Shown here in pieces: positions 10,468-28,957 of a stretch of DNA of 32,000 nt. Numbering within the stretch: the first letter of the stretch is position 1; each line of letters opens with the position of its first letter. The DNA comes from Halorhodospira halophila SL1 (GTDB lineage Bacteria; Pseudomonadota; Gammaproteobacteria; Nitrococcales; Halorhodospiraceae): the NCBI RefSeq assembly GCF_000015585.1, contig NC_008789.1, positions 2,070,001 to 2,102,000 on the forward strand. The letters are read 5' to 3'. The notes under the pieces were generated by a model that did no database searches, was not told where the DNA came from, and saw only the letters and a program-made list of their open reading frames with translations. Made by a program: the position numbers and the translations under genes.

Positions 10468-10867
10468 GGAACATTGCCCCCCAGGAACGCTGAGACGTTA
10501 TTGCAACCGGTGTTGCAGGTCTGAGATGAGCGTACCCCAAAGGCCTCTCGCCAAGTAAGGCTTCACGTGGTGGGAGTCCAGATCGATGGACAGGTGCACG
10601 CTATAACCTCAGCTTCTTCCGAAGTCCCTCCAGTGGGTTAGCCCTAAGGGCGGGATGCACGAGCACCCAGCCCGCGACAACGAACCGCATCACACCCTGG
10701 GGACACGGGACACACCGATGGGTATTCGGTTACCCCCAACGCGATAGATTCCAGGCTCAGCGCCTTGCCGGAGCCGCGGCGATAGCCCCCCCCTGACGGC
10801 AGCGTGCTACTTTCCGTAACATAACGAGCGCGCTGCACGCGCAGGCGCCATCTGGAGGGAATCCCCG

Positions 10868-11059
10868 TTGCGTTATGGACCCGGACCTGCCGCCGGCAGC
10901 GTGGCGCTGTTCTTGTTGGTGCTCTTCCTGCTGGCCACGCCGTTCACCGACTGGTGGATGGAGGCCCGGCCGCCGTGGTACGTCCCGTACCTCGGCTGGG
11001 CGGTGGTGATCGCATTGGGTGGCTGGTTGATCGAACGGGGAACCGGGCGTGACCTTTGA
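10868..11059 (+). CDS. Small 2-TM membrane protein preceding the SSS-kinase (CbrX-like position)
   Basis: TTG start in the ORF track; an in-frame GTG at 10901 is an alternative. Two hydrophobic helices (ALFLLVLFLLATPF and WAVVIALGGWLI). Its stop (11057-11059) overlaps the kinase GTG start at 11049 by 11 nt. A similar ORF precedes the second SSS-kinase. Confidence 0.45.
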   Translation: MRYGPGPAAGSVALFLLVLFLLATPFTDWWMEARPPWYVPYLGWAVVIALGGWLIERGTGRDL

Positions 11060-14006
11060 CCTGCTCACCCTCTTCCTGGTGGGCGTCGTCTACCTGGGGC
11101 TGCTCTTCGTCATCGCCTTCGCCGTGGACCGGCGCTGGTTCCCGCGCAGCGTGGTCCGCCATCCGGTCTTCTATGTCTTCGCTCTGGGGGTCTACGCCAC
11201 CACCTGGAGCTACTACGGCTCGGTAGGCTTCGCCGACGAAAACGGCCTGATCTTTGCCACCATCTACCTGGGCGTCACCGCGGCCTTCCTGCTCACGCCG
11301 GTGCTCCTCGCCCCCCTGCTGCGCCTGACCAGCAACCAACAGCTGACCTCGGTGGCCGACGTCTTCGCCTTCCGCTTCTCCAGCCAGTTCGCCGGCATTC
11401 TGGTCACCGCCATCATGCTCGCCGGCATCCTGCCGTACATCGCCCTGCAGATCCGCGCCGTGGCCGAGTCGACCCTGGTCCTGACCGGCGGGGGCCACGA
11501 TCCTCGGCCGCTGGCCCTGGCCTTCTGCCTGATCGTGACGGTGTTCGCCATCATCTTCGGTGCCCGGCACGTCACCCCGCGGGTCAAGCACACCGGGCTG
11601 GTCGTCGCTATCGGCCTGGAGAGCCTGGTCAAACTGGGTGCCCTGCTGATGGTGGCCTGGGTCGCCGTCGACCTAGCCTTCGACGGCCCGGCGGGGCTGT
11701 CGGCGTGGCTCAGCGAGAACCCGCAACAGCTGGACGACTTCTACCAGCCGGCGCTGGAGGGCCCGTGGCTCAGCCTGCTGACCCTGACCTTCGCCGCCGC
11801 CTTCCTGCTGCCACGCCAGTTCCACATCCTGTTCACCGAGAACCTCTCGCCGCGCAGCCTCACCCGGGCCAGCTGGGCCTTCCCGCTGATCCTCCTGCTG
11901 CTGGCCCTGGCCGTCCCGCCGATCCTCTGGTCCGGCACGGCGCTGAACACGGACACCGCCCCGGAGTACTACGTGCTGGGACTGGCGGCCCTGTCCGGCT
12001 CGGAGCCGCTGACCCTGCTGGTCTATCTGGGCGGCATCTCGGCGGCGACAGCGATGATTGTCGTCTCGACCCTGGCGCTGTCGTCGATGACGCTCAACCA
12101 CCTGGTGATGCCGCTGATCAAGTCGCTGCCGCACCAGGAGCCGGACCTTTACGCCACGCTGCGCTGGACCCGGCGATTCCTGATCACCATGCTCATCGTC
12201 TTCGGGTTCACCTTCTACGAGCTGCTCGACCGCACCGAGGGCCTGGTTGAGTGGGGGCTGATGTCCTTCCTGGCCATGGCCCAGTTTCTGCCCGGGATCA
12301 TCGGCGTCCTCTACTGGCAGCGCGCCACCGTCTACGGCTTTGTGGCGGGCCTGCTCGGCGGCTCGCTGATCTGGCTGGACACCATCCTGCTGCCGGCGCT
12401 GGCCGGCACCGAGCCGTTCTTCCTGCTCGGCTTCCCCCAGGCCCGGGAGAGCGCGACCGAAATCTACGGCATCGCCACCTTCTGGTCCCTGGCCCTGAAC
12501 GGCCTGCTGTTCGTCGGGGTCTCGCTGTTCACCCCCCAGCGCTCCGCGGAGCGGCAGGCCGCCGAGGTCTGTCGGGATCAGACGGCAGCCATCGCGCCGG
12601 GGACGCTGCAGGCCGCCTCGCCGTCGCAGTTCGTGATCCAGCTGGCGCCGGTCACCGGTGAAGAGGCGGCCCGCCAGGAGGTGGACAAGGCCCTGCACGA
12701 CCTGGGGCTGGCCTGGAGCGAGAACCGTCCCGACCAGCTCCGCGCCCTGCGCGATCAGGTCGAGCGCAATCTCTCCGGCATGATGGGACCGATGCTCGCG
12801 CGCATGATCGTCGACAAGCGGCTGCAGCTCGACCGCACGGCCCGTACCGCGCTGGCCCACAACATCCGCCAGATCGAGGAGCGCCTGGAGTCCTCGCGCA
12901 ACCGCTTCCGGGGCCTCGCCGCGGAACTCGACCGGCTGCGCCGCTACCACCGCCAGATCCTCGAGGACCTCCCCCTGGGCGTCGTGGCGGTGACCGCCCA
13001 CGGCCGCGTGGTGCGCTGGAACACCGCCATGCAGGGCCTGTCCGGGATCTCGGCGAACACCGCGCTGGGCTCGCGGATCTGTGACCTCCATCCCCCGTGG
13101 GATCAGCTGCTGAACCGGTTCCTGACCATCGAGCAACCGCAGCACCAGGAGCAGTTCCCGCAGCCCGGCGGCGAGCAGCGCTGGCTGTCGCTGCACAAGA
13201 CGTGCATCCGCGAGTCCGGCCGCGGCCGGACCGGCGACACCCTGATGATCATCGAGGACATCACCCACATCCGCCGCCTGGAGCGCGAGCTGGCCCACAG
13301 CGAACGACTGGCCTCCATCGGCCGCCTGGCTGCGGGCGTGGCCCACGAGATCGGCAACCCGGTCACCGGCATCGACTCCCTGGCGCAGAACCTGCGCCAC
13401 GAGTCCGATCCACAGCTCCTGCGCGAGAGCGTCGACGAGATCCTGGAACAGACGCGGCGGATCAATAACATCGTGCAGACGCTGATCGGCTACGCCCACG
13501 CCGGCAACACCGACGAGCGCACGCCGGACCCGGTGCCGCTCAGCGAGACCGTCGAGGAGGCGCGCCGGCTGGTCCAGTTAAGCAAGCGTGGTCAGGACCT
13601 GGAGATCGACAACCAGCTCTGGCCCGAACTCCAGGTCCGCGGTGATCGGCAACGGCTGGCCCAGGTCTTCGTCAACCTCTTCTCGAACACCGCCGATGCC
13701 TGCGGCCCCGGCGGACGGATCGCGATCTCGGCCCGCCGCTACGGCGATCGCGTGCAGATCCGGGTGGTGGACAACGGCCCGGGCATCCCGGCCGAGCTGG
13801 TCGACAAGGTGATGGAGCCGTTCTACACCACCAAGCCGGTGGGCCAGGGCACCGGACTCGGGCTGCCGCTGGTCTACAACATCGTCAGTGAACAGGGGGG
13901 CGAGTTTTCGATCACGGCCGACAACGGGGGCACCACAGCCTGGATCACCCTGCCGGTACTCGACCCCGCGCCGCCGACCGAGCGCGCCGAGAGCAAGGAG
14001 GAGTAA
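11049..14006 (+). CDS. SSS(SLC5)-STAC-PAS sensor histidine kinase, CbrA-like
   Basis: 985 aa. A ~500-aa polytopic sodium:solute-symporter-like N-domain is followed by a STAC-like linker (..LRDQVERNLSGMMGPMLARMIVDKRL) and a PAS domain (LPLGVVAVTAHGRVVRWNTAMQGLSG). H-box is LAAGVAHEIGNP. ATPase boxes are NLFSNTADAC, DNGPGIP and GTGLGLPLV. Confidence 0.9.
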   Translation: MTFDLLTLFLVGVVYLGLLFVIAFAVDRRWFPRSVVRHPVFYVFALGVYATTWSYYGSVGFADENGLIFATIYLGVTAAFLLTPVLLAPLLRLTSNQQLTSVADVFAFRFSSQFAGILVTAIMLAGILPYIALQIRAVAESTLVLTGGGHDPRPLALAFCLIVTVFAIIFGARHVTPRVKHTGLVVAIGLESLVKLGALLMVAWVAVDLAFDGPAGLSAWLSENPQQLDDFYQPALEGPWLSLLTLTFAAAFLLPRQFHILFTENLSPRSLTRASWAFPLILLLLALAVPPILWSGTALNTDTAPEYYVLGLAALSGSEPLTLLVYLGGISAATAMIVVSTLALSSMTLNHLVMPLIKSLPHQEPDLYATLRWTRRFLITMLIVFGFTFYELLDRTEGLVEWGLMSFLAMAQFLPGIIGVLYWQRATVYGFVAGLLGGSLIWLDTILLPALAGTEPFFLLGFPQARESATEIYGIATFWSLALNGLLFVGVSLFTPQRSAERQAAEVCRDQTAAIAPGTLQAASPSQFVIQLAPVTGEEAARQEVDKALHDLGLAWSENRPDQLRALRDQVERNLSGMMGPMLARMIVDKRLQLDRTARTALAHNIRQIEERLESSRNRFRGLAAELDRLRRYHRQILEDLPLGVVAVTAHGRVVRWNTAMQGLSGISANTALGSRICDLHPPWDQLLNRFLTIEQPQHQEQFPQPGGEQRWLSLHKTCIRESGRGRTGDTLMIIEDITHIRRLERELAHSERLASIGRLAAGVAHEIGNPVTGIDSLAQNLRHESDPQLLRESVDEILEQTRRINNIVQTLIGYAHAGNTDERTPDPVPLSETVEEARRLVQLSKRGQDLEIDNQLWPELQVRGDRQRLAQVFVNLFSNTADACGPGGRIAISARRYGDRVQIRVVDNGPGIPAELVDKVMEPFYTTKPVGQGTGLGLPLVYNIVSEQGGEFSITADNGGTTAWITLPVLDPAPPTERAESKEE

Positions 14007-14011
14007 CCCCA

Positions 14012-15382
14012 ATGGCCGACCTGCTGCTACTCGAGGACGAAGCCGTTATCCGCAAGGCCTTGGACCGGCTGCTGAGCCGTCACGGGTACAGCGTCCACCA
14101 GGCCGACTCCCTGGAGCAGGCCCAAGAGCGCTGGAACCTGGACGCCTTCGACCTGATCCTCGCGGATATGCGGCTGCCCGGCGAGCCCGGCACCGAGGCC
14201 ATCGGGCGCACCGCAGCGCCGGTGATCATCATGACCAGCTACGCCAGCGTGCAGTCGGCGGTGGAGGCGATGCGCCAGGGGGCAGCCGACTACATCGCCA
14301 AGCCCTTTGACCACGACGAACTGTTGCTGCTCGTCGAACGCACCCTCAAGGAGGGCCGCCTGCAGCGGCAGAATGCGGCGCTGAAGGCCCATATCGAGCG
14401 CGATTACCCGGTCACCGGGATTGTCGGCAACTGCGAGGCGATGCAGAAGGTCTTCGAGCGCATCCGCAAGGTCGCCCCGACCGACACCTCGGTCCTGATC
14501 CTGGGCGAATCGGGCACCGGCAAGGAGCTGGTGGCCCGGGCGTTACACGAGCAAAGCGAGCGCCACGAGGGTCCGCTGGTGGCGGTCAACTGCGCGGCGA
14601 TCCCCGACGGGCTGATCGAGGCGGAGCTCTTCGGCCATGAGCGGGGCGCATTCACCGGGGCCGTGGGCGCCCGCGCCGGGCTGGTGGAATCCGCCGACGG
14701 CGGCACCCTGTTCCTTGACGAGATCGGCGAACTGCCTCAGCAGGCGCAGGGGCGACTGCTGCGCGTGCTGCAGGAGGGGGAGATCCGGCGCATCGGTTCG
14801 ACCCACGCCCGACGGGTCAACATCCGCCTGGTGGCCGCCACCCACCGCGACCTCAAGAGCCTCGCCAGCGCCGGTGAGTTCCGCGAGGATCTGTTCTTCC
14901 GCATCAACGTCATGGAGATCCGCCTGCCCCCGGTCCGCGAACGCGAGGCGGACATCCCGGAACTCGCGCGCTTCCTGCTCGAAAAGGCGTGCCAAAGGCT
15001 CAACCGCGCACCCCTGGAGCTCTCCCGGGCGGCCATCGACGCCATGACGGCCTACCCGTGGCCCGGCAACGTGCGCGAGATGGAGAACACCATCGAGCGG
15101 GCCGTAATCCTCAGCGAGGGCAGCACCATCTCTCCGGACATGCTGGGCCTGCCGGCCGGCGAAAGCGCCCCGTCCGGCACCACGAGCGGCCCCACCGCCG
15201 AGGCCGACGCAGGCCCGCGTCAGGACCTGTCCCTGGAGGACTATTTCCGCCAGTATGTGCTTACCCATCAGGACCACATGACGGAGACCGCCCTGGCCCG
15301 TGGGCTGGGCATCAGCCGCAAGGCGCTGTGGGAGAAACGGCAGCGCCACGGGATCCCGCGGCCGGGTAACAACCGGACCTAA
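14012..15382 (+). CDS. NtrC-family sigma54-dependent response regulator, CbrB-like
   Basis: 456 aa. Receiver domain (LILADMRLPG, IIMTSY, IAKPF). AAA+ domain with Walker A GESGTGKE and the sigma54-contact motif GAFTGA. C-terminal Fis-type HTH (LARGLGISRKALWEKRQRHGI). Starts 5 nt after the kinase stop. Confidence 0.92.
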   Translation: MADLLLLEDEAVIRKALDRLLSRHGYSVHQADSLEQAQERWNLDAFDLILADMRLPGEPGTEAIGRTAAPVIIMTSYASVQSAVEAMRQGAADYIAKPFDHDELLLLVERTLKEGRLQRQNAALKAHIERDYPVTGIVGNCEAMQKVFERIRKVAPTDTSVLILGESGTGKELVARALHEQSERHEGPLVAVNCAAIPDGLIEAELFGHERGAFTGAVGARAGLVESADGGTLFLDEIGELPQQAQGRLLRVLQEGEIRRIGSTHARRVNIRLVAATHRDLKSLASAGEFREDLFFRINVMEIRLPPVREREADIPELARFLLEKACQRLNRAPLELSRAAIDAMTAYPWPGNVREMENTIERAVILSEGSTISPDMLGLPAGESAPSGTTSGPTAEADAGPRQDLSLEDYFRQYVLTHQDHMTETALARGLGISRKALWEKRQRHGIPRPGNNRT

Positions 15383-15435
15383 CGTGTTACCTTTCGACAC
15401 ACCTGGAAGCGACGGGACGTGCAACCTCGTAACAC
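15364..15435. promoter_or_regulatory. Cluster of TGTTACC/GGTAACA half-sites upstream of acs (candidate enhancer-binding-protein sites)
   Basis: GGTAACA at 15365-15371, TGTTACC at 15385-15391, GTAACAC at 15429-15435. GTGTTAC (15384-15390) and GTAACAC form a 7-bp inverted repeat with a 38-nt spacer. The same heptamer recurs at 21329-21370. Confidence 0.4.
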
Positions 15436-15549
15436 TCTGCTCTGCTATCCTCCCCGCGTGACCGGAGCGCCGGAGCGCGGGCACTTACGGCCGGGTCGTC
15501 GCCAGGAGACGGCCCGCTTGACCGATCAGAAATCCGGGAGGAGAGAACG

Positions 15550-17487
<1,938 letters not shown>

Positions 17488-17947: not shown

Positions 17948-18547
17948 CTAATCGGGGCGCTGGGTGTAGGCCCTCTGCTGGCTGTCTTTTTCCGGGTCGG
18001 AGAGCTTACGCTCATCTTCCGGCAGCGCCAGCTGCTCCTCGAGGTAGTCAGCGCGTTCCGAGATGCTCGGCTGGCCGTCCGGTCCCATGTGGAAGAAGCG
18101 GGTCAACCACCCCGGGCCGTCATCCACCGCCTCGTCCAGTTCCGCCGCCTTACGGTAGTCCGCAAGCGCCTGCTCGTGTTCACCGAGCCGGTCGTAGGCG
18201 ATCCCGCGGTTGGCGTAGGCGCCGGCGAACTCCGGATCGATCAGTTCGATGAACCGGTCGTACACGTGGATGGCGCGTTCCAGCTCGCCTAGCTCAAGCA
18301 GCGTCGTGGCCTTGCCCAGGTGAGCGTAACGGTGCTCCGGCGCCTCCTCCAGCGCCCGGGTGTACTGCTCCAGGGCGCGATCGTAGCGCCGATCCTGGAG
18401 GGCGCGATCGCCGGCGATGGTCTTGACATCGCCCGGCCCCCGATCCGGTGCCACCCCCTGATACAGGGCGTAGCCCAGCGGCAGGAGCGCCGCCACGATG
18501 GCGATGGCCACCCAGGTCCGGTACCCCCGCTCGGTAATCTTGATCAT
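17948..18547 (-). CDS. Membrane-anchored TPR-repeat protein
   Basis: 199 aa with an N-terminal TM (WVAIAIVAALLPLGYALY). TPR-like repeats: YDRALEQYTRALEEAPEH.., AIHVYDRFIELIDPEFAGAYANRGIAYDRLGEHEQALADYRKAAELD. ATGA overlap with the upstream small gene (18544-18547). Confidence 0.8.
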   Translation of the reverse strand: MIKITERGYRTWVAIAIVAALLPLGYALYQGVAPDRGPGDVKTIAGDRALQDRRYDRALEQYTRALEEAPEHRYAHLGKATTLLELGELERAIHVYDRFIELIDPEFAGAYANRGIAYDRLGEHEQALADYRKAAELDEAVDDGPGWLTRFFHMGPDGQPSISERADYLEEQLALPEDERKLSDPEKDSQQRAYTQRPD

Positions 18548-18780
18548 TGCAACACACCTAACGTTGCCGAATTCAGGAAGAAAGAGAACACCGGCAGGAT
18601 GACGGTGGCCAGCACACGGGCCCGCCGTTTCTGCCCGGCCAGTTCCTCTTCAGACAACTCCCGGTCCAGTTTCCGCTGCAGCCGCCGCACGCTCAACACC
18701 CAGATCCACTGACTGACCGGATAGAAGAGAATGACGACCAGCAGAACGACCCAGAACAGGAATTGGGTTGTGGGATCCAT
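18544..18780 (-). CDS. Small (78 aa) 2-TM membrane protein
   Basis: MDPTTQFLFWVVLLVVILFYPVSQWIWVLSV, then a charged linker, then VLATVILPVFSFFL. Translationally coupled to the TPR gene and sits downstream of the symporter. Confidence 0.6.
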   Translation of the reverse strand: MDPTTQFLFWVVLLVVILFYPVSQWIWVLSVRRLQRKLDRELSEEELAGQKRRARVLATVILPVFSFFLNSATLGVLQ

Positions 18781-18878: not shown

Positions 18879-21170
18879 TTACGGACGGCTCACGTCGTAG
18901 CGGGCCTTGCCCTGATCCTCGTCGAAGAGGACCTCGATTTCCTTCTCGGGCACGGTGCTCATCTCACACTTGTAGCAGGTGAACCACATCATGTAGATAC
19001 CGATCACCCACCACAGCAGCTGCCAGACCACGATGGACGGCAGGCCGAGGAACCACCAGGTATCGGGGTTGGTCGGATCACCGAAGACCCAGTTGCCCAG
19101 CAGGGCGCCCGGACCGAAGGCGAAGATCCACCAGCCGATGACGATGGTGAAGGCGATCGGGATCAGGTGGCGCTTCTCGGCCGGCAGTGACGCATGCTCG
19201 CGAAGGAAGGCGTGCACCGTCATGCGGTGATCGTAGTCTTCCTTGTTGTTCTGCGTCATCGCCGAGACGACCACGGCCACCAGGGCGTTAAGCACCAGGC
19301 CCCACCCGGCAGAGTGGATGGTCAGCGGCCAACGGCCCCAGGGCACGTCGACGCCCGCCGCCGCCAGCAGGTCGATGCCGATGTTCTCGGTCATCAGCAC
19401 GGCAACGATGCCAACGCCCAGCCCCCAGACCACACCCGGACGGGTAAGCCAGGGGAAGAAGCAGATGGCGGCCAGCGGCACCCACATCTGCGTACCCATG
19501 GCGGTGGCCAGACCGCCGAGCAGCACCAGGGCGTCGGTGGTCACCGTCGCCACGGTCAGGGCCGCAAGCACCAGGATGGTGACGAAGACCCGGCCCGCCA
19601 CCACCTGGGCCTGGTTGCTGGCACTGGGCATGATGTAGCGACGCAGCAGGTCACGGGTAAACATGCCACTGGTGGTGGACATGTACGCCGCGCCGGTGGA
19701 CTGCATGGCCGCCAGGGCACAGACCGCCAGCAGGGCCGCCAGCCACGGCGCCGCCGCCTCCAGCATGTTCAGCAGCTGGGGCACAAGCTCGCTGTCACCG
19801 CCCCGATCCAGGGACAGGTCCAGCCAGGCCCGCTCGAGATCGCCCGGCAGAGCTGCCAGCCAGTCCGGATCCATGTTGCGCGGATCCTCACCGATGGACA
19901 GCGCCGCCAGACCGGCCGCGATGACCTGCTCGACCTCCTGACGACTGAGTTCCGGATGCTCGGCCTGGATCATGCCGCGCTGCATGACCGCGGTGGGTAC
20001 CAGCGGGCTGAGATCCATGCCGTCCAGGGACTCGCCGGCGTCCAGGCGCTCGCGCACCTCGTCCACCAGCCCTTGGTGCTCCTCGGAGGCCTCGAACAGC
20101 GTCCGGTACTCGGCCAGCTGCTCACCGTGCTCGTCGGAGAAGATGTCCTTGGCGAACTCGGTGTTGGCCCCCAGGCCGTGGGTGGCCATCGCCTGGATCG
20201 CCAGGAAGGTGAACATCAGGGCACCGACGCCCACCGGGGACATCCAGGTCTGTTGCGGCGCAAACGGACGCGGGTTCTGGTTCGAGAACGCCCACATGGT
20301 GAACGACGGGGAGGCCATGATGCCGCCCAGCGCCAGCATGTAGGTGATGTTCATGACGCCGGTCCAGACACCGCCCTGGGCGTTGGCCGCGGCACCGACC
20401 CACTGGATGGCACCCGGGATGGCGACATAGCCACTGGCACCGCTATCCCCCGGCACCATGCCCGGCGAGACCTCACCCGCACCACCGGTGGCGGTCTCCC
20501 ACTCGACCAGGCCGGCAATCACGTGCGTGAAGTTGTTCCAGCCGCCGATGTAGTAGAGCGTCACGACGCCGATGACGAAGATGCCCACAATGAGCAAAAC
20601 AGCCTGCGCCGCGTCCACGTACGCCACGGCGCGCAGACCGCCCGAGGCCACGTAGAACAGCACCACCGCGGACAGCAGCCACATGCCGATCTCGACGCCC
20701 ATCCAGCCGTCGGTGAGCACGTGGAACAGGAAGCCCGAGGCGCGCAGCTGAATCCCCAGGTACGGCACTGCGAAGATCAGCGCCACAATGAGGATCAGGA
20801 TGCGGATCGAGTCCGTCCGGAAGTAGTCCGCGAACATCTCGCCCGGCGTGACGTAACCCCAACGCTTGCCAATCATCCATTGGCGCTTGAGGAACAGCAT
20901 GCCGGTGAACGGGATGCAGATGGAGTAGAACGAGGCGTAGGCGTACTGCAGGCCGTCCTCGTAGATCAGGCCCGGGTGTCCTACGAACGTCCACCCTGAG
21001 AACGATGTGGCCGTTGCCGCCAGTATGAAGACCCACATACTGACGGAGCGCCCGGCCACGAAGTAGTCGCTGGCTGTGCGCGACCAAAGGTATCCCTTGA
21101 TACCCCAGAAGATGCAGTAGCCCCAGTACAGGCCTACAAACACCAACAGCCATATGGCCATAGCTGACAT
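18879..21170 (-). CDS. Sodium:solute symporter (SSS) family transporter, atypically long (763 aa); likely monocarboxylate/acetate permease by context
   Basis: SSS-type N-terminus (YFVAGRSVSMWVFILAATATSFSGWTFVGHPG; GGLRAVAYVDAAQA) and a late SSS helix (ALAAMQSTGAAYMSTTSG). Has a ~140-aa hydrophilic acidic insertion (aa ~335-474) and a ~120-aa C-terminal extension with 2 extra TM helices. RBS GAGGGGGAG lies upstream. The substrate is inferred only from the acs/sigma54 context. Confidence 0.9.
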   Translation of the reverse strand: MSAMAIWLLVFVGLYWGYCIFWGIKGYLWSRTASDYFVAGRSVSMWVFILAATATSFSGWTFVGHPGLIYEDGLQYAYASFYSICIPFTGMLFLKRQWMIGKRWGYVTPGEMFADYFRTDSIRILILIVALIFAVPYLGIQLRASGFLFHVLTDGWMGVEIGMWLLSAVVLFYVASGGLRAVAYVDAAQAVLLIVGIFVIGVVTLYYIGGWNNFTHVIAGLVEWETATGGAGEVSPGMVPGDSGASGYVAIPGAIQWVGAAANAQGGVWTGVMNITYMLALGGIMASPSFTMWAFSNQNPRPFAPQQTWMSPVGVGALMFTFLAIQAMATHGLGANTEFAKDIFSDEHGEQLAEYRTLFEASEEHQGLVDEVRERLDAGESLDGMDLSPLVPTAVMQRGMIQAEHPELSRQEVEQVIAAGLAALSIGEDPRNMDPDWLAALPGDLERAWLDLSLDRGGDSELVPQLLNMLEAAAPWLAALLAVCALAAMQSTGAAYMSTTSGMFTRDLLRRYIMPSASNQAQVVAGRVFVTILVLAALTVATVTTDALVLLGGLATAMGTQMWVPLAAICFFPWLTRPGVVWGLGVGIVAVLMTENIGIDLLAAAGVDVPWGRWPLTIHSAGWGLVLNALVAVVVSAMTQNNKEDYDHRMTVHAFLREHASLPAEKRHLIPIAFTIVIGWWIFAFGPGALLGNWVFGDPTNPDTWWFLGLPSIVVWQLLWWVIGIYMMWFTCYKCEMSTVPEKEIEVLFDEDQGKARYDVSRP

Positions 21171-21240
21171 TCGTGTCTCCCCCTCACATTTCTTGAGTTA
21201 TGAGGTGTTGCAATCCCCCCGCAGGGGTCGGCGGTCTCTA

Positions 21241-21256
21241 GCGAAAACCGTGCCAC
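21241..21256 (-). promoter_or_regulatory. Sigma54 (-24/-12) promoter for the symporter operon
   Basis: The minus strand reads TGGCACGGTTTTCGCT, i.e. TGGCAC-N5-TCGC, with GG and GC at canonical spacing (consensus TGGCACG-N4-TTGCW). The -12 GC lies ~70 nt upstream of ATG 21170. An NtrC-type activator is encoded in the window. Confidence 0.7.
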
Positions 21257-21317
21257 CCGCCCCAGAGCGCTTAACCCACTGATGGGCCTTGGCCCCGCAG
21301 CACGACCATGCGTCCAC

Positions 21318-21372
21318 GCGTTACCTTCGGTAACAAGCCACGTTCCCAGGGGTAACACCAGTGGGTAACACC
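21318..21372. promoter_or_regulatory. Upstream activator-site cluster in the divergent intergenic region (TGTTACC-type motifs)
   Basis: Palindrome GTTACC-ttc-GGTAAC at 21320-21334. A 10-nt direct repeat GGGTAACACC sits at 21350-21359 and 21363-21372. The cluster lies 64-116 nt upstream of the -24 GG of the minus-strand sigma54 promoter. Confidence 0.55.
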
Positions 21373-21447
21373 CGCGCAGCGGTTTGTCTCTGCCGCCGGG
21401 GTTGGGCATGATCAAAGCGAGCAGACCCCCGCACAGGAGAAGCGCCG

Positions 21448-23370
21448 ATGGCCGCCGGAGCGAACAGCCCCGGGGAGCAAAACCCGTCCGCCGACACGCT
21501 GGACGTCGGTCGCCTGGCCGAGAACGAGGTCTTCCGCAACCTTGATGAACAGTTACTGCGCGCACTGCTGGCGCGTGGCAGGGTTCATCACCTGGAAAGC
21601 GGCGACGTGCTCTTCCACCTCGGCGACCCGGACCGCGACACCCTCTATATTCTCTACGAGGGGCGGGTCGAGCTGCGCGACGCCCACAACGTGGTCACCG
21701 TCCGCGAGCCGGTGACCCTGCTCGGGCTGTCGAGCTACTTCGACGACGAGCCCTACACCCTCACCGCCCGGGCCACCCGGCCGTCGCTGGTGGTCGGCAT
21801 CCCCTTCGAGGATGTGCGCACCCTCGAGCGCGAACACCCGCCCCTGGCCGACGCCTTGAGCCGCATTATCGCCGACCGGATCCGCGCCAACTCCTGGCAG
21901 CATCGCGGCAGCCCCACCGGTGCCCTGTCGCAGCCGGCGCGCACCGCCATGTCCACGCCGCTGACCTACCAGCAGCCGGACTGCAGCCTGGGCGAAGCCT
22001 TCCGCTTCATGGACGAACGCAAGATCGGCAGCATCGGCGTGCTCGACGAGGCCGGCGGTCTGGTCGGCCTGGCCACGCTGCGCACCATCGGTCGCGCCAT
22101 CTTCACCCGGGGGCTGACCCCCGAAGCCTCCATCGTCGAGGCCGCCGAGCGGATCACCGCCATCGGCCCCGAGACGCCGCTATCCGAGGCCAAGGACATC
22201 CAGGCGCGGGAGAACGTCAAGTACCTGGTGGTCATGGACGGCACACGGCCGGTGGGCATGCTCTCGCAGTCGAACATGCTCCAGGCGATCATGGCCCAGC
22301 AGACCGTCATGCGCGAGCGCATCAACCGGGCCACCAGCATGTCGGAGCTGCAGCAACTCGCCGGCGAGGTGGGTTACGTGGCGCGCGAAGCCTGGAACAA
22401 CAACCGCGAGGCCAGCCGCGCCACCTATCTACTGAGCGAATTCCACCTGCAGCTCCAGCGCCGCTGCATCGACCTGGTGGTGGATGAACTCCGCAGCGAA
22501 GGCTGGGGCGAGGCGCCGCGTCCCTACGCCCTGCTGATCCTCGGTTCGCTGGCGCGCCGCGAGGCGCTGATCAACCCGGACCAGGACAACGCCATGATCA
22601 TCGGCGACTGTCCCCGGGGCGGCGACGACCCCCGCCCCCTGGACGAAACCGAGGCGGAGTGGTTCGCCACCTTCGCCGAGCGAGTGAACATCCGCCTCGA
22701 CGAGCTCGGCTACGAGTGGTGCAAGGGCGATATCATGGCCCGCAACCCGGAGTACCGTCACCCGCTGGAGCGCTGGCGGCAACAGTTCCGCTACATGGCC
22801 CGGCACCCGAACAGCACCTCGGCGCGCTGGTGCAACATCTTCCTCGACTTCGAGCTGCTCTACGGCGAACAGGGCCTGGTGACCGAGCTCTGGGACTTCG
22901 TCCTGGCCACCCTCAAGGAACAGCCCAAGCTATTGCGCTTTATGACCGGTGATGACGCCGAGGGCCAGCCGGCGGTGGGGCTGTTCAACCGGCTGATCCG
23001 CTCGCGCCGCGGCGACAATGGCAACGGCTGCGTGGACATCAAGCGCAAGGGGCTGCGCATCATCGCCAACGGGGCGCGCATCTATGCCCTTTCGGCCAGT
23101 GTGCGCGAAACCAACACCGTGGCCCGGCTCAAGGGCCTTCGCCGCGAGGGCGTGCTGACCAGCGAGATGGTCGACTCGGTCCTCACCGGCCACGAAGAGC
23201 TGCTCGATCTGCTGCTGACCCACCAGATCGAACAGCATCAGGCGGGCACCGCTCCGGACAAGTACATCGACCCCGAGGAGCTGGACGACCTGACCCGCCA
23301 GTCCCTGGCGACGAGCATGAAAGCGGTCAAGCGCTTCCAGGACCGCGTACAAGGCGTCTTCGGCCTTTAG
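21448..23370 (+). CDS. cNMP-binding + tandem CBS + DUF294-type putative nucleotidyltransferase (with DUF294_C-like substrate-binding domain)
   Basis: 640 aa. Cyclic-nucleotide-binding-like N-domain (VFRNLDEQLLRALLARGRVHHLESGDVLFHLGDP..LYILYEGRVEL). Two CBS motifs (..KIGSIGVLDEAGGLVGLATLRTI.. and ..VKYLVVMDGTRPVGMLSQSNML). Pol-beta-type NTase signature LGSLARREALINPDQDNAMII (GS at 22543-22548, DQD at 22579-22587). Confidence 0.9.
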   Translation: MAAGANSPGEQNPSADTLDVGRLAENEVFRNLDEQLLRALLARGRVHHLESGDVLFHLGDPDRDTLYILYEGRVELRDAHNVVTVREPVTLLGLSSYFDDEPYTLTARATRPSLVVGIPFEDVRTLEREHPPLADALSRIIADRIRANSWQHRGSPTGALSQPARTAMSTPLTYQQPDCSLGEAFRFMDERKIGSIGVLDEAGGLVGLATLRTIGRAIFTRGLTPEASIVEAAERITAIGPETPLSEAKDIQARENVKYLVVMDGTRPVGMLSQSNMLQAIMAQQTVMRERINRATSMSELQQLAGEVGYVAREAWNNNREASRATYLLSEFHLQLQRRCIDLVVDELRSEGWGEAPRPYALLILGSLARREALINPDQDNAMIIGDCPRGGDDPRPLDETEAEWFATFAERVNIRLDELGYEWCKGDIMARNPEYRHPLERWRQQFRYMARHPNSTSARWCNIFLDFELLYGEQGLVTELWDFVLATLKEQPKLLRFMTGDDAEGQPAVGLFNRLIRSRRGDNGNGCVDIKRKGLRIIANGARIYALSASVRETNTVARLKGLRREGVLTSEMVDSVLTGHEELLDLLLTHQIEQHQAGTAPDKYIDPEELDDLTRQSLATSMKAVKRFQDRVQGVFGL

Positions 23371-23453
23371 AATAAGGGCGTGCGCCGCCGACGCCAGGCG
23401 TGTCGACGGCGACCGAGATCCGGCCCAATAACCGAGAGGAGGCGGCCACGAAG

Positions 23454-23831
23454 ATGAGCCAAGAGATCCTGATCGTGGACGATGAGGACAACATCGTCCT
23501 GTCCCTGGAGTTCCTGATGAAGCAGGCCGGTTTCGAGGTGCGCACCGCCCAGGACGGCGAGCAGGCCATCGAAGCCCTCGAGGCACGCATCCCGGACCTG
23601 GTCCTGCTCGACGTGATGATGCCCCGCAAGGACGGCTACGAGGTCTGCCAGGAGATCCGTCAGCGCAGCGAGTGGGCGCACCTGCCGGTGGTCATGCTGA
23701 CCGCCAAGGGACGTGACGTGGAGCGCGAGAAAGGACTGGCCATGGGCGCCGACGACTACATCACCAAACCGTTCTCAACCCAGGAGGTGGTGGAAACGGT
23801 CCAGCACATCCTCGCCAACGGGGCACAGTAA
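23454..23831 (+). CDS. Stand-alone response-regulator receiver (CheY-like)
   Basis: 125 aa from ATG 23454, with RBS GAGGAGG at 23436-23442. [13 protein letters not shown].., phospho-acceptor context [14 protein letters not shown], plus VVMLTAKG and YITKPF. No output domain. The ORF track's GTG 23400 start adds 18 non-conserved residues. Confidence 0.9.
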
Positions 23832-25954
23832 TGGCCAGCGCCATGGCACGTCGCCGGTTGAAATTCTGGGCACCGGCGCTGGTCCTGCTGCTGCTGATCG
23901 CCGCTGCCCTGGCCACCGTCGGCTACCTGACCCTGGGACACGTTCCCGAGGGACCGGAGCGCGCCAATGCGCTGCTCGCCCTGGGAGGCGCCGGCGCGGT
24001 GCTCATCGGCGCCACCGTGGCCATCTGGATCCTCCTGGACGCCACCGTCATCCGCCCCCTGGGCGCGCTGGCCCGCGGGGCGTCGATCATGGCCCACTCG
24101 AACCCGGCCCACGAACTGGAGATCCCGAGCATGCACCTGCTCGGCGAGCTCCCGGAGAGCCTACAGACGCTGGGCAGCAACCTCTATGAGACCCGGCGCG
24201 AAGTGGCCAAGGCCCTGGGCTCCGGCGCCCAGGGGGTCGAGAACCAGAAGACGCGGCTGGAGATCGTTCTGCGCGAGATCCAGCAGGGGGTCATCGTCTG
24301 CGACACCGAGGGCCGGGTGCTGCTCTACAACCCGGCCGCCGGCGAGATCCTGCGCAGTGATGCACTGGGTCTGGGGCGCTCCATCTACGACGTGCTGGCC
24401 CGCTCGGCGGTGGACCACACCCTGGAGATGCTCCAACACCGCCTGGCCATCGCCGACGACCACACCGTGGCGGAAAACCGCGCCGAATTCGTCTGCGCGA
24501 CGGTGGATGACGGCGCCCTGCTGCACTGCCGGATGAGCCTGCTCCCCTCCTCCAGCCCCCTGCGCTCGGGGTTCGTGCTGACCATCGAGGACATCACCCG
24601 CAAGATTGAAGGCGTAGCCCGCCGCGACCACGCCCTGCGCACCGCCGTGGAGGCCCTGCGCCCGCCGCTGGCGAACCTGCGCGCCGCCGCCGAGAGCCTC
24701 GGCCAGGGCGACGAGGCCATGGCCCGCGAGCAGCGCCAGTCGTTCGAGACGCTCATGGTCCACGAAAGCCGGGAGCTGAGCCGACGCTTCGAGCGCATGG
24801 CCCGGGAGACCCACCGACTCGTCTCGGCCCCCTGGACCATGGCGGACATCAGCAGCGCGGACCTATTGGCCAGCGTCCTGCGCCGCCACCCGGAGGGATT
24901 GCCGAAGGTCGAGGTGGTCGGCATCCCGCTGTGGATGCACGCCGAGAGCCACTCCATCGGCCTGGTACTGGAGCACATGCTGCGCCACCTGCGCGGCGAA
25001 CTCGGCATCGAGCAGATCCGCGCCGAGCCCCTGATGGGGGATCAGCGGGTGTATCTGGATCTCTCCTGGCAGGGCCCACCGATCCCGCCGGATCAGCTCG
25101 AGACGTGGCTGGACGAGGAGCTGCCCGAGGCCACCGGGCAACTGACCCCGCGCGGGGTGCTGGAGCGCCACGACAGCGTCGCCTGGAGCCAGATACAACC
25201 TCGCTGCGAAGGACGCGCCCTGCTGCGCATCCCGGTGCCGCTATCGCGGCGCCAGTGGGAGCAGCCCGGCGAGCGCCTGCCACCGCGGCCGGAGTTCTAC
25301 GACTTCTCGCTGGCCGACCAGGCCGCCGATCAGGGCGAGCTGCTCGATCGCCCCCTGGCCCAGCTATCATTCGTCATCTTCGATACCGAGACCACCGGAC
25401 TGGCCCCCTCGGAAGGCGACGAGATCATCTCCATCGCCGGGGTACGCATGGTCAATGGCCGCATCCTCGAGGGCGAGTGCTTCGAGCAGCTGGTCAACCC
25501 CGGGCGGCCGATCCCCAAAGCGTCGATCAAGTTCCACGGCATCCGCGACGAGATGGTCGCCGACAAGCCGGGGATCGCCACGGTGCTGCCGCAGTTCAGC
25601 GCCTTCGTCGGCGATTCCGTGCTGGTCGCCCATAACGCCGCCTTCGACATGAAGTTCATCCGCCTCAAGGAAGGTCAGTGCGGCCTGAAGTTCGAAAACC
25701 CGGTGCTCGACACCCTGCTGCTGTCGGTCTTCCTGCACGATCACACCCCTGAGCACACCCTGGAGGCCATCGCCAACCGCCTGGGGGTGGAGATCAGCGG
25801 CCGCCACACGGCGCTGGGCGACACCCTGGTCACCGGCGAGATCTTCGCGCAGATGCTGCCGCTGCTCGAGGAGCGCGGCGTCACCACCCTGCGCGATGCG
25901 ATCAACGCCTCCGAACAGATGGTCGAGGTCCGCAAGCAGCAGGCCCAGTTCTAA
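23831..25954 (+). CDS. Membrane sensor (2 TM-HAMP-PAS-degenerate histidine-kinase-like core) fused to a DEDDh 3'-5' exonuclease (DnaQ/RNase T-like)
   Basis: 707 aa. The start overlaps the receiver stop (TAATG at 23829-23833). PAS: [32 protein letters not shown]. DHp-like helix [19 protein letters not shown] lacks His. The exonuclease domain spans aa 512-707 (nt ~25364-25951) with Exo[11 protein letters not shown], Exo[14 protein letters not shown] and Exo[15 protein letters not shown]. Confidence 0.88.
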
Positions 25955-26158: not shown

Positions 26159-28957
26159 GTGCTGCCGGCGTGGACCATCCTGCTGGTTTCGGCGCTCTAC
26201 GTCGGGCTCCTGTTCGCCGTCGCCTATACGGCGGACAAGCTCGGCGATCGCGGCCTGTCGCTGGTCAACAACCCGTACGTCTACACCCTGTCCATCGCCG
26301 TCTACTGCACGGCCTGGACCTTCTACGGCAGCGTCGGCCTGGCGGCCGAACAAGGGCTGGCCTTCCTGACCATCTACCTCGGCCCGACCCTGATGGCCAT
26401 CGTCTGGTGGGTGGTGCTGCGCAAGATCGTGCGCATCAGCAAGCTCTACCGGCTCACCTCCATCGCCGATTTCATCGCCGCCCGTTACGGCAAGAGCATG
26501 CTCCTCGGCGGCCTGGCGGCATTCATCGCCCTAGTCGGCACCACCCCGTACATCGCGCTGCAACTCCAGGCGGTCTCCTCGAGCTTCGACGTCCTGCTCC
26601 ATTTCCCGGACATGGAGGCGGTCCAGGCGGGCAGTGCCGGGCTTCTGGACGACAAGGCGCTCTACGTGGCGGCCCTCCTGGCCCTGTTCACCATCCTCTT
26701 CGGCACCCGCCACATCGACGCCACCGAACGCCTGGAGGGCATGGTGGTGGCGGTGGCCTTCGAGTCGGTGGTCAAGCTGGTCGCCTTCCTGGCGGTCGGG
26801 ATCTTCGTCACCTTCGTCCTCTTTGCCGGGCCCGTGGAGCTCTTCCGCGAGGCAGCGGCCTCGCCGGCCATCGCGGAGCTCGGCCTGCTCACCGGACTAC
26901 CCGGCGGCTACCAGAACTGGATCGCCATGCTGGCGCTCTCGGCCCTGGCGATCCTCTTCCTGCCGCGGCAATGGCAGGTCAGCGTGGTGGAGAACGTCAA
27001 CGAGGACCACATCCGCACGGCCTCCTGGCTCTTCCCGCTCTATCTACTGGTCATCAACCTGTTCGTCCTGCCCGTGGCCCTGGCGGGGCTGCTGTTCTTC
27101 GGCGACGAGATCCCCGGCGACGACTACGTGCTGGCCCTGCCCCTGGCCGTCGATCAGGGGCTGCTCGGCCTGCTGGTCTACATCGGCGGCTTCTCGGCGG
27201 CCACCGGCATGGTGATCGTCGCCACCATCGCCGTGGCCATCATGGTCAGCAATGACATTGTGACCCCGGCGCTGCTGCGCCTGCGCCGCTTTCACGCCCG
27301 GGGGCGCCACGATCTGTCGAGGCTGATCGTCACCATCCGGCGCCTGGTGATCTGCGCGATCCTCGCCCTCGGCTACGCCTACTACCTGCTCATCGCCGAC
27401 ACCCACGCCCTGGTCTCCATCGGGCTGATCTCCTTTGCCGCGGTGGCGCAGTTCGCGCCGGCGGTCCTGCTCGGGCTGTTCTGGAAGGGGGCGAGCCGGC
27501 GCGGCGCCCTGGCCGGGCTGGTGGCCGGGTTCCTGCTCTGGGCGTACACCCTGCTGCTGCCTTCGCTGGCCGAGGCGGGGCTGCTCGGCGAGCGGCTGCT
27601 CACCGACGGCCCGTGGGGCATTGAATGGCTGCACCCCTACGGCCTGTTCGGTATGGAGGGCATGGACCCCATCGCCCACGCCTTCTTCTGGACCCTGCTG
27701 GCCAACCTCGGGCTGCTCCTCGGTGTCTCGCTGTTCGATCGCCAGGGCGACATGGAACGCATCCAGGCCACGCTGTTCGTCGACGTCTTCCTGCGCTCGG
27801 AGCGCGACGCCCGCTTCTGGGAGGGCACCGCCACCGTCGGCGACTTGCAGGACCTGCTCGGCCGCTTCCTCGGCCCGGAGCGGGCCGCCGGGGTCATCCG
27901 TGAGTACGGCGCCCACCGCGGACGTCCGCTGGATGAGGCCGAGCAGGCACAGCCCGAGCTGGTCAATCAGGTCGAGCGCCTGCTCGCCGGCTCCATCGGC
28001 TCCGCCTCGGCCCGGGTGATGGTGGCCTCCATCGTCAAGGGCGAGGCGCTCTCCTACGAGGGGGTCATGGAGATCCTCGACGCCACCTCGCGGGCCATCG
28101 AGTACTCGCGGCGGCTGGAGGAGAAATCCCACGCCCTGGAGAGCGCCACCGAGGAGCTGCGCGCCGCCAACGAGCGGCTCAAGGAGCTGGACCAGCTCAA
28201 GGACGAGTTCGTCTCCATGGTCAGCCACGAGCTGCGCACGCCGCTGACCTCGATCCGCGCCTTCGGCGAGATCCTACTCAACAACCCGGAGATGGACGCC
28301 GATCAGCGCCGCGAGTTCCTGGAGGTGGTCGTCCGCGAGAGCGAGCGGCTGACCCGGCTGATCAACCAGGTACTGGACCTGTCCAAGATCGAGAGCGGCT
28401 CGGCCCAGTGGCAGCTGGAGGACGTGGATCTCTCGCGCCTGGCCCGGGAGGCGGCGGAGTCCACCCAGCAGCTGTTCACCGACCGGCAGACGCAGCTGCA
28501 CATCGAGATCGCCAGCGACGACAACGCCATCAAGGGCGATCCGGACCGCCTGATGCAACTGATCATCAACCTCCTGTCCAACGCCGCCAAGTTCACCGAG
28601 CCCGGCGAGGGGCAGGTGTGGCTGCGCCTGGAGAAGGGCCGCGGCGACACCCTGCGCCTGTCGGTCACGGATAACGGACCGGGGATCAGTGCCGAGGATC
28701 AGCGGCGGATCTTCGACAAGTTCCACCAGATCTCTCAGCAGCAGGCCGGCAAGCCCAAGGGCAGCGGCCTGGGGCTGGCCATCTGCCGGCTGATCGCCGA
28801 CGCCCACTGGGGCACGCTCTGGGTCGACAGCGAGCCCGGCGCCGGCGCCAGCTTCGTCTGCAAGCTGCCCCGCGCCGGCGGCGAGCACTGCAACGTCACC
28901 GGGTACGTGGCGTTCTCCGAGCGCGGCCCGGCACCCCCTGAGGAGGAGCCGTCGTGA
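26159..28957 (+). CDS. SSS(SLC5)-STAC sensor histidine kinase (CrbS/CbrA-type paralogue, no PAS or receiver seen)
   Basis: 932 aa. The N-terminus (MLPAWTILLVSALYVGLLFAVAYTADK) is paralogous to the kinase at 11049. STAC-like segment: ELVNQVERLLAGSIGSASARVMVASIVKG. A coiled coil follows, then H-box FVSMVSHELRTPLTSIRAF. ATPase boxes are NLLSNAAKFT, DNGPGIS and GSGLGLAICRLI. Confidence 0.9.
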   Translation: MLPAWTILLVSALYVGLLFAVAYTADKLGDRGLSLVNNPYVYTLSIAVYCTAWTFYGSVGLAAEQGLAFLTIYLGPTLMAIVWWVVLRKIVRISKLYRLTSIADFIAARYGKSMLLGGLAAFIALVGTTPYIALQLQAVSSSFDVLLHFPDMEAVQAGSAGLLDDKALYVAALLALFTILFGTRHIDATERLEGMVVAVAFESVVKLVAFLAVGIFVTFVLFAGPVELFREAAASPAIAELGLLTGLPGGYQNWIAMLALSALAILFLPRQWQVSVVENVNEDHIRTASWLFPLYLLVINLFVLPVALAGLLFFGDEIPGDDYVLALPLAVDQGLLGLLVYIGGFSAATGMVIVATIAVAIMVSNDIVTPALLRLRRFHARGRHDLSRLIVTIRRLVICAILALGYAYYLLIADTHALVSIGLISFAAVAQFAPAVLLGLFWKGASRRGALAGLVAGFLLWAYTLLLPSLAEAGLLGERLLTDGPWGIEWLHPYGLFGMEGMDPIAHAFFWTLLANLGLLLGVSLFDRQGDMERIQATLFVDVFLRSERDARFWEGTATVGDLQDLLGRFLGPERAAGVIREYGAHRGRPLDEAEQAQPELVNQVERLLAGSIGSASARVMVASIVKGEALSYEGVMEILDATSRAIEYSRRLEEKSHALESATEELRAANERLKELDQLKDEFVSMVSHELRTPLTSIRAFGEILLNNPEMDADQRREFLEVVVRESERLTRLINQVLDLSKIESGSAQWQLEDVDLSRLAREAAESTQQLFTDRQTQLHIEIASDDNAIKGDPDRLMQLIINLLSNAAKFTEPGEGQVWLRLEKGRGDTLRLSVTDNGPGISAEDQRRIFDKFHQISQQQAGKPKGSGLGLAICRLIADAHWGTLWVDSEPGAGASFVCKLPRAGGEHCNVTGYVAFSERGPAPPEEEPS

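Follow-up and report, generated by a model that had tools for sequence, protein, structure and literature searches.

A probable CbrB-type enhancer and sigma-54 promoter upstream of a sodium:solute symporter operon in Halorhodospira halophila SL1

Locus and gene content

The subject of this work is a divergent intergenic control region in the chromosome of Halorhodospira halophila SL1, analysed within a stretch of 32,000 nucleotides (NC_008789.1, positions 2,070,001 to 2,102,000 of the forward strand; hereafter the window, in whose own numbering all coordinates are given). The control region (21171-21447) separates a minus-strand gene for a sodium:solute symporter family protein of 763 amino acids (18879-21170; Pfam SSF), the target gene in question, from a plus-strand gene for a cNMP-CBS-DUF294 nucleotidyltransferase (NTase; 21448-23370), which is the first gene of a divergent operon. 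Elsewhere in the window, all on the plus strand, lie a CbrX-like open reading frame (ORF) for a small two-helix membrane protein of 63 amino acids (10868-11059), a 985-residue kinase orthologous to CbrA (11049-14006; Pfam PAS, HisKA and HATPase), whose start is overlapped by the small ORF over 11 nucleotides (nt), an NtrC-type regulator orthologous to CbrB (14012-15382; Pfam REC, a sigma-54 AAA+ domain with GAFTGA, and a Fis-type helix-turn-helix, HTH) and the acetyl-CoA synthetase gene acs (15550-17487). The proteins encoded by the window ORFs were annotated by Pfam and NCBIfam scans.

A preliminary description of this DNA, made from its letters, had proposed that a near-consensus sigma-54 promoter and repeated TGTTACC-type sites in the control region could serve the symporter and the NTase genes alike, and that the NtrC-type regulator would be the protein that binds these sites. 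The comparative analysis reported here makes it quite probable that the region holds a real CbrB-type enhancer together with a sigma-54 promoter, and that the two act in one direction to drive the symporter operon alone.

Results

A predicted sigma-54 promoter ahead of the symporter

The minus-strand element TGGCACGGTTTTCGCT (21255-21240) has the form of a -24/-12 promoter, with its GG at 21254/21253 and its GC at 21242/21241, that is, 10 nt apart within the consensus TGGCACG-N4-TTGCW, from which it departs by a single mismatch (TCGC for TTGC). When 63,968 window positions were scored with a weighted -24/-12 matrix, this element reached 14.8 and took the first rank, and shuffled windows yielded 0.2 sites each at that score. 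The looser pattern TGGCAC-N5-TNGC is found once in the window and at least once in 36 of 100 shuffles, so that this count alone is not rare. The preliminary description had read the same element as TGGCACGGTTTTCGC and begun it at 21256; the letters are indeed present, at 21255-21241, and the earlier boundary takes in one extra base. The -12 element stands 71 nt ahead of the symporter ATG at 21170. The predicted transcription start lies at about 21229, with a leader of about 59 nt.

Hairpins are predicted in the symporter leader (21176-21229, minus strand), whose sequence is kept in Halorhodospira sp. 9621 and in a further relative, locus L001. One of them, CCCC-UGCG-GGGG, lies right at the putative 5' end, and a second, CCUCAUA...UGUGAGG, overlaps the symporter Shine-Dalgarno sequence; the folding of this leader RNA is not significant (z-score -0.9).

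Palindromic boxes and an IHF-like site

Upstream of the promoter, at 21318-21336, lies a proximal box (Site I) that consists of a perfect palindrome, GTTAC-N5-GTAAC, reading TGTTACCGAAGGTAACG on the symporter strand, with the palindrome itself, GTTACCTTCGGTAAC, at 21320-21334; it scores 24.8 with the palindrome matrix, and its centre falls about 98 nt upstream of the predicted start. A distal box (Site II, 21340-21358; GTTAC-N5-GGAAC on the symporter strand, score 14.7) follows at 22 nt from centre to centre, near -120, and has inside it the first of two 10-nt direct repeats GGGTAACACC (21350-21359). The second repeat (21363-21372) constitutes a third, orphan half-site of uncertain role. Halorhodospira sp. 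9621 (L203) retains it, L001 has the degenerate form TGTTGC, and more distant relatives lack it. Two more boxes accompany the regulatory genes: GTGCTACTTTCCGTAACAT (10804-10822, score 16.5) lies upstream of cbrX-cbrA-cbrB, and GTGTTACCTTTCGACACAC (15384-15402, score 14.4) lies directly 3' of the cbrB stop and upstream of acs. The matrix was derived from sites of other genomes only, with the window excluded; the window contains these four matches at or above 12 against about 0.15 expected, all four of them intergenic.

The palindrome and the direct repeats had been recognised before, as had the five occurrences of the exact heptamer TGTTACC/GGTAACA (15365, 15385, 21329, 21351 and 21364), whose clustering was judged unlikely to be due to chance. 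Our computed scan agrees: dinucleotide-preserving shuffles contain 0.89 copies on average and 3 at most, and none of 100 reaches five. The accompanying remark that all five lie in or at the edge of promoter regions fails for the copy at 15365, which belongs to the last codons of cbrB and is missing in L001, the nearest of the relatives compared at that locus.

In the interval that separates boxes and promoter, the minus strand carries at 21271-21283 a candidate site ATCAGTGGGTTAA resembling the bend sites of integration host factor (IHF), in which CATCAGTGGGTTA corresponds to WATCAANNNNTTR with 2 mismatches. It aligns with a perfect TATCAACGGGTTA in L001, and perfect sites are also present in L033 and L077. 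Across relatives, an IHF match with at most one mismatch occurs in the interval between box and promoter in 6 of 16 loci, where shuffles average 0.5 and never exceed 3.

Conservation across relatives of the symporter

For the relatives of the symporter, 80 genomic loci were fetched and the window genes were mapped onto each of them. With the window counted in, 14 loci have an exact GTTAC-N5-GTAAC ahead of the symporter, 13 of them from the fetched set, and two more carry it with one mismatch. Every one of these 16 site-carrying loci has GGCAYG-N4-TYGC at 72-144 nt downstream of the palindrome centre, with sigma-54 scores of 9.3-15.5 (mean 13.3), whereas in the 59 symporter loci that lack the palindrome the best sigma-54 score over the corresponding stretch averages 3.3 and reaches 11 only once. 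The identification of the minus-strand element as the sigma-54 promoter of the symporter, which the preliminary description had put forward, is supported by this retention in 16 of 16 loci.

Alignments of between six and sixteen diverged loci, whose taxa range from Halorhodospira to unclassified Gammaproteobacteria, single out the same bases. Outside the coding ends and the ribosome-binding site, invariance is confined to both half-sites (GTTAC and GTAAC) of the proximal box, to GTTAC and the final AC of a distal site located 22-24 nt further upstream, whose partner half is weaker, and to GGCACG and T.GC of the promoter. The palindrome spacers and all of the DNA around the sites differ from locus to locus, even when the window is set against Halorhodospira sp. 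9621, which has a protein 96% identical to the window symporter. As read from these alignments, the intergenic pattern is a classical phylogenetic footprint. The comparative data thereby lend support to the earlier view of the TGTTACC-type sites as the upstream activating sequence of the symporter promoter; they speak against the 13-nt direct repeat or an N14 layout as the functional unit, since what relatives keep is TGTTAC-N5-GTAACA plus a second site 22-24 nt away.

The boxes also travel with a particular pair of regulatory genes. Genes similar to cbrA and cbrB are visible in 11 of the 16 site-carrying loci as opposed to none of the 59 without the site, and in L031, L057, L070, L074, L077 and L078 the pair immediately precedes the symporter in the same orientation, with the box after the regulator stop. 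Related loci amounting to 1.33 Mb contain 33 matrix matches, of which 29 fall upstream of the symporter, acs or cbrX/cbrA.

Identity of the regulator

Comparisons with CbrB, CbrA and CbrX were made with the database proteins P0201 and P0140 and with the Pseudomonas putida locus L081, a CbrB query sequence having been used as bait only. The regulator at 14012-15382 shares 56% identity (519 bits) with P0201, a protein named CbrB, and its HTH (...TETALARGLGISRKALWEKRQRHGIPR) and that of CbrB (...TETELARKLGVSRKCLWERRQRLGIPR) have a near-identical recognition helix; its sigma-54 domain is recognised by Pfam (Sigma54_activat, E = 2.9e-71) and the GAFTGA motif appears in the CbrB alignment. Pseudomonas CbrB, at 57% identity, is about as close to the window regulator as the orthologues of L057, L077 and L078 are (60-61%). 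The regulator gene begins 6 nt after the stop codon of the kinase, which in turn is 47% identical over 978 residues to P. putida CbrA and of matching length (985 versus 984 amino acids); the SLC5-like membrane part of the kinase is supported by the CbrA alignment alone, with no Pfam match. The 63-residue product of the ORF at 10868-11059 is 31% identical to P. putida CbrX (pairwise E = 3e-8) and is conserved in nine loci. On these sequence comparisons, the cbrX-cbrA-cbrB cluster of the window is a CbrXAB orthologue, and the earlier nomination of the NtrC-type regulator is borne out in that it is a CbrB orthologue adjoining orthologues of CbrA and CbrX; the product of 14012-15382 is thereby supported as the best candidate binder of the boxes. 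The layout described for P. putida, in which cbrX and cbrA are translationally coupled, thus extends beyond the Pseudomonadaceae, a family to which CbrAB has been stated to be unique (PMC6296734, PMC8871633).

The published CbrB consensus is TGTTAC-N12-14-GTAACA-N15-19-GTAACA (PMC8871633), backed by mutational data and electrophoretic mobility shift assays (PMC6296734), and the TGTTAC-N14-GTAACA form given for the CbrB site in the preliminary description agrees with it (PMC8871633, PMC6296734). In P. putida (L081), TGTTACC-N14-GTAACAG-N17-GGTAACG is followed by TGGCACG-N4-CTGC and then by crcZ, directly after cbrB. The published N12-14/N15-19 arrangement is not found in the symporter region of the window, where the predicted operator is the CbrB half-site in a compact palindromic arrangement. 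Neither CrcZ nor any other Rfam family is detected in the window, and the same search returns CrcZ at 336.6 bits in the P. putida control locus.

The boxes at cbrX and acs

The box at 10804-10822, which ends 46 nt ahead of the cbrX-like start codon, is kept upstream of cbrX/cbrA in seven loci, among them L001, L003, L008, L021, L057 and L078. No sigma-54 promoter was found upstream of acs or of cbrX in the window, where the best scores are 2.6 and 6.8, respectively; a sigma-54 match of 6.7 at 10857 was set aside because its letters are those of the ribosome-binding Shine-Dalgarno sequence and the TTG start codon with which the cbrX-like ORF opens. A box that no sigma-54 promoter separates from the cbrX start suggests autoregulation of a different kind, possibly repression. 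The right half of this box, TAACAT, could double as a -10 hexamer, which would be suggestive of autorepression.

The box at 15384-15402 is kept in L001. Equivalent acs boxes are followed by a sigma-54 promoter in L008, L021 and L033 and not in the window, L001 or L003; the latter three share a conserved TGCTATCCT (15441-15449 in the window, extended -10-like) instead. An acs leader hairpin with one compensatory change is also seen in the window, L001 and L003; the folding of the acs leader RNA is not significant (z-score -0.2).

The NTase side of the control region

On the plus strand, GGGCATGATCAAAGCG at 21404-21419 had been proposed as a weaker -24/-12-like element, GGGCAT-N5-AAGC, ahead of the NTase gene. 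It scores 5.7, a value equalled or exceeded at 86 window positions, and we rejected it as a promoter in view of a -12 half that is not conserved in the nearest relatives and is lost in L001. Among nine loci in which the two genes are divergent, none has a sigma-54 promoter on the NTase strand, the best scores ranging from -1.7 to 8.9 at non-homologous positions, and in related loci with a non-divergent arrangement of symporter and NTase genes no box accompanies the NTase gene. The weak score, the lack of conservation and the count of zero in nine leave the proposal that the same sites drive both divergent units through sigma-54 unsupported.

A candidate promoter of the sigma-70 type, TTGTCT-17 nt-CATGAT (21384-21412, plus strand), overlaps the supposed plus-strand -24 element. 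Aligned by eye, the window shares the form TTGTCT/TTGTTT-17-CATGAT with L203 and L001, and the form seen in L003 and L008 is TTGGCA-16-GATAAT; with 8 of 12 matches, the window element is under the threshold of the sigma-70 scanner, which reports no match at that threshold in either intergenic region. Most likely, to judge from these alignments, the divergent operon of NTase, REC, exonuclease and kinase genes has a sigma-70-type promoter of its own. The CrbR-type ACTU motif (ACY-N4-GTCK) has 10 matches in the window against 17 expected, all of them in coding sequence and none intergenic, on which ground CrbR-type control of the NTase or acs genes was discarded; no LuxR-type regulator is present among the window ORFs scanned.

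The composite pattern in metagenomes

Public metagenome contigs were scanned for GTTAC-N5-GTAAC-N60-90-GGCAYG-N4-TYGC, which gave at least 125 matches. Among those listed, about 20 lie directly after a cbrB-like gene (56-63% identity), the targets behind them being the family symporter (eight cases), acs, cNMP-CBS-DUF294 genes and a DUF4212 small subunit. This slot after cbrB is the position that crcZ occupies in Pseudomonas. A DUF294-type gene stands in it, behind a box and a sigma-54 promoter, in L116, L122, L127 and L183. With L123, L156 and L193 included, the slot holds a box, a sigma-54 promoter, and either a DUF294-type gene or the DUF4212 small subunit of a VC_2705-type symporter.

Among the listed metagenome loci (L083-L202) there are also soil contigs with no cbrB nearby, in which palindrome and promoter precede several gene groups: ssb (10 cases), recA, pilin-like proteins of the N-methylated kind (18 cases) and a transposase of the IS91 type. 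One organism (Ga0209381/Ga0101944 contigs) carries many near-identical copies. Nearly all of these non-cbrB matches have a T before the GG, a position that the pattern leaves unspecified, so that they look like real sigma-54 promoters; ssb and recA driven by sigma-54 would be unusual.

Neighbouring genes

The symporter operon continues on the minus strand with a membrane ORF of 78 amino acids (18544-18780), located between the symporter and the last gene, which encodes a TPR protein of 199 amino acids (17948-18547). In about 70 loci of Gamma- and Alphaproteobacteria the TPR gene always follows the symporter, and acs often adjoins the symporter. Symporters of this family are unusually long (650-780 amino acids), and the TPR protein may serve them as an accessory subunit.

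The NTase operon comprises, further along the plus strand, a REC-only protein (23400-23831), a PAS-exonuclease of the PAS-DEDD type (23831-25954), a small ORF that follows it, and a second transporter-like kinase (26159-28957), CrbS-like and devoid of a receiver domain, which is 33% identical to CbrA over the membrane part. A module of kinase and exonuclease, with or without DUF294, recurs in L001, L002, L003, L008, L013, L021, L033 and L063, and the whole looks like a CrbS that has been split, in which the receiver stands alone and a DNA-binding partner is missing. At 4161-6098 on the minus strand there is a CHASE2-adenylate/guanylate cyclase gene, 15 kb from the DUF294 protein, of which it is a possible ligand source, given that this protein belongs to the kind that binds cyclic nucleoside monophosphates (cNMP).

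Discussion

The comparisons establish the sequence elements, their conservation, their association with cbrAB and the orthology to CbrXAB. Inferred from them are the binding and activation steps, the point where transcription starts, the part played by IHF and the transported substrate, which together would compose the following course of events. Sigma-54 RNA polymerase would bind 21255-21240 on the minus strand and wait as a closed complex before the operon of symporter, 78-residue ORF and TPR gene. The CbrA orthologue would phosphorylate the CbrB orthologue, encoded about 6 kb from the boxes, which would then occupy the tandem sites near -98 and -120, namely the 17-base-pair (bp) palindrome TGTTAC-N5-GTAACA and a weaker copy two helical turns off, with the extra half-site beyond box II. 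The regulator would form an AAA+ ring, loop the DNA to the promoter, probably aided by the IHF-like bend site at 21271-21283, and open the promoter with ATP. The occurrence of the same box before cbrX-cbrA-cbrB and before acs suggests a local regulon made up of the regulator's own operon, acetyl-CoA synthetase and the symporter; the acs box and the frequent adjacency of symporter and acs make acetate or another short carboxylate the likely substrate of the symporter.

Several observations weigh against a CbrB-driven enhancer and sigma-54 promoter confined to the symporter operon. No CbrB site published so far has the N5 spacing of these half-sites, the published spacing being N12-14 with a third subsite, so that homology supports the half-site and not the architecture, and the IHF-like site of the window itself is an imperfect one, with its 2 mismatches. 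The boxes at acs and cbrX have no downstream sigma-54 promoter in this genome, and hence not every box here can work by sigma-54 activation. Finally, about 100 other listed metagenome matches, most of them in soil contigs, have no cbrB in their vicinity and stand before ssb, recA, genes of the pilin-like kind and others, which means that the combination of palindrome and sigma-54 promoter is not reserved for orthologues of CbrB. The boxes without a sigma-54 promoter lead to the thought that the regulator is a repressor or roadblock at some or all boxes, mainly at sigma-70 promoters (those of cbrX, acs and the NTase operon). The position of one such box only 46 nt before the cbrX-like start, the lack of a -24/-12 element after the other at acs, and the short distance from box II and the orphan half-site to the candidate NTase -35 that follows them are in keeping with this possibility, as is the precedent of NtrC, which represses the sigma-70 promoters glnAp1 and glnLp in like manner. 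Nonetheless, no sigma-70 promoter exceeds the scanner threshold in any of these regions, and the box-promoter distance of 72-144 nt at the symporter, together with the strict co-occurrence of box and -24/-12 element, is what activation needs; we hold repression to be unlikely, if by no means far-fetched.

The metagenome matches raise a different doubt, namely that the promoter does use sigma-54 and the boxes serve a different enhancer-binding protein, whose gene lies elsewhere in the genome. In the roughly 100 listed stretches with no cbrB-like gene nearby the palindrome does lie 60-90 nt upstream of near-consensus sigma-54 promoters, and 5 of the 16 site-carrying symporter loci lack cbrAB in the available DNA. 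Two of these five exceptions, however, are short, incomplete contigs, whereas cbrAB accompanies the site in 11 of 16 loci, often directly beside the box, and none of the 59 loci without it; moreover, boxes flank the regulator's own operon, and the HTH of the regulator is near-identical to that of CbrB, whose half-site is TGTTAC (PMC6296734). We regard a foreign binder as improbable, and the same applies with slightly greater force to a shared bidirectional enhancer that would also activate the NTase/exonuclease operon through 21404-21419. For the latter, the boxes lie 45-85 nt upstream of the plus-strand element, a permissive geometry; DUF294-type genes do stand behind box and sigma-54 promoter after cbrB in L116, L122, L127 and L183; and a homologue, Pflu5625, belongs to the CrbS/R acetate regulon of Pseudomonas (PMC5715377). 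Against it count the low score of the element with its 86 equals or betters, the loss of its -12 half in L001, the low and non-homologous best scores in the nine divergent loci, the absence of a box at non-divergent NTase genes, and conserved bases that fit a -35/-10 pair instead. The notion that the heptamer clustering and the -24/-12 match reflect chance or a functionless repeated genomic element can draw on the TGGCAC-N5-TNGC match that turns up in 36 of 100 shuffles; it is contradicted by the heptamers, for which no shuffle reaches five, and refuted by the comparative data, in which half-sites and -24/-12 bases are the sole invariant columns in otherwise diverged intergenic DNA, so that we give it practically no credence. 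A CbrB-type enhancer acting on the symporter promoter alone is the reading that we favour.

As a regulatory principle this is the familiar textbook case, in which an enhancer-binding protein works on a sigma-54 promoter. The enteric NtrC/glnAp2 enhancer consists of two tandem 17-bp inverted repeats situated about 100-140 nt upstream of a sigma-54 promoter, and NtrC, a phosphorylated REC-AAA+-HTH protein that oligomerises and loops the DNA, has further sites at its own operon. The window shares with it the tandem 17-bp sites, the regulator architecture and the boxes at the regulator's own operon, and differs in the site sequence, which for NtrC is TGCACC-N5-GGTGCA, and in the signalling partners, NtrB/PII in the enteric case and a membrane transporter-like kinase in the window, where the input is probably carbon and not nitrogen.

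Closer still is Pseudomonas CbrAB, as known from the crcZ, crcY and PP2810 promoters (PMC6296734, PMC8871633), which has in common with the window the cbrX-cbrA-cbrB trio with its overlapping small ORF, the TGTTAC/GTAACA half-site, a -24/-12 promoter whose boxes lie some 100 nt ahead of it, with an IHF-type site (in the window a candidate one) in the interval, and a box right after the cbrB stop, as in L081. Unlike Pseudomonas, the window has the compact N5 palindrome and not TGTTAC-N12-14-GTAACA-N15-19-GTAACA, has acs after cbrB and no crcZ by Rfam, offers a protein-coding transporter operon as its clear target, and belongs to the Halorhodospira lineage rather than to the Pseudomonadaceae. 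A third system, CrbS/CrbR (MxtR/ErdR; PMC5715377), resembles the window in its gene set (acs, an acetate-type symporter, a cNMP-CBS-DUF294 protein) and in its transporter-fused sensor kinases. CrbR, however, is a LuxR-type activator of sigma-70 promoters that works through the ACTU inverted repeat (PMC5715377), whereas the window has an NtrC-type regulator with sigma-54 and no intergenic ACTU motif. One possibility is that the second, REC-less CrbS-like kinase also feeds the CbrB orthologue.

A limited literature search on CbrAB in halophilic or other Gammaproteobacteria, which does not prove unpublished status, found nothing relevant beyond CbrA/CbrB homologues named in passing in one genome paper. 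What appears to be new here is a full CbrXAB orthologue outside the Pseudomonadaceae, with a clear palindromic operator and a small direct regulon. CbrAB is a much-studied global carbon regulator of Pseudomonas, where the published subsites are non-palindromic and no dimer was detected. Full cbrX-cbrA-cbrB orthologues in Ectothiorhodospiraceae and other Gammaproteobacteria would offer a simpler system in which to study sensing by CbrA and DNA recognition by CbrB, given a clean 17-bp operator, a tiny regulon (the symporter, acs and the system itself) and no layer of small RNA evident beside cbrB. There is also a gain for annotation, in that an uncharacterised 763-residue symporter acquires a regulator and a likely substrate class.

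These results bear on the history of the system as well, in that the link between CbrAB and acetate, which in Pseudomonas is indirect and passes through CrcZ and Crc, is suggested to be ancestral and direct. Tentatively, and with a conviction that falls a little short of even, we propose that CbrXAB is an older gammaproteobacterial system, which originally exerted direct sigma-54 control over genes for carboxylate uptake and activation (of the symporter, acs, DUF294 and DUF4212 types) through a compact 17-bp operator, with its main target directly after cbrB, and that in the Pseudomonadaceae crcZ took over this slot and the operator was stretched. If true, this history would account both for the difficulty of defining the CbrB site in Pseudomonas and for the dependence of acetate use there on CbrB.

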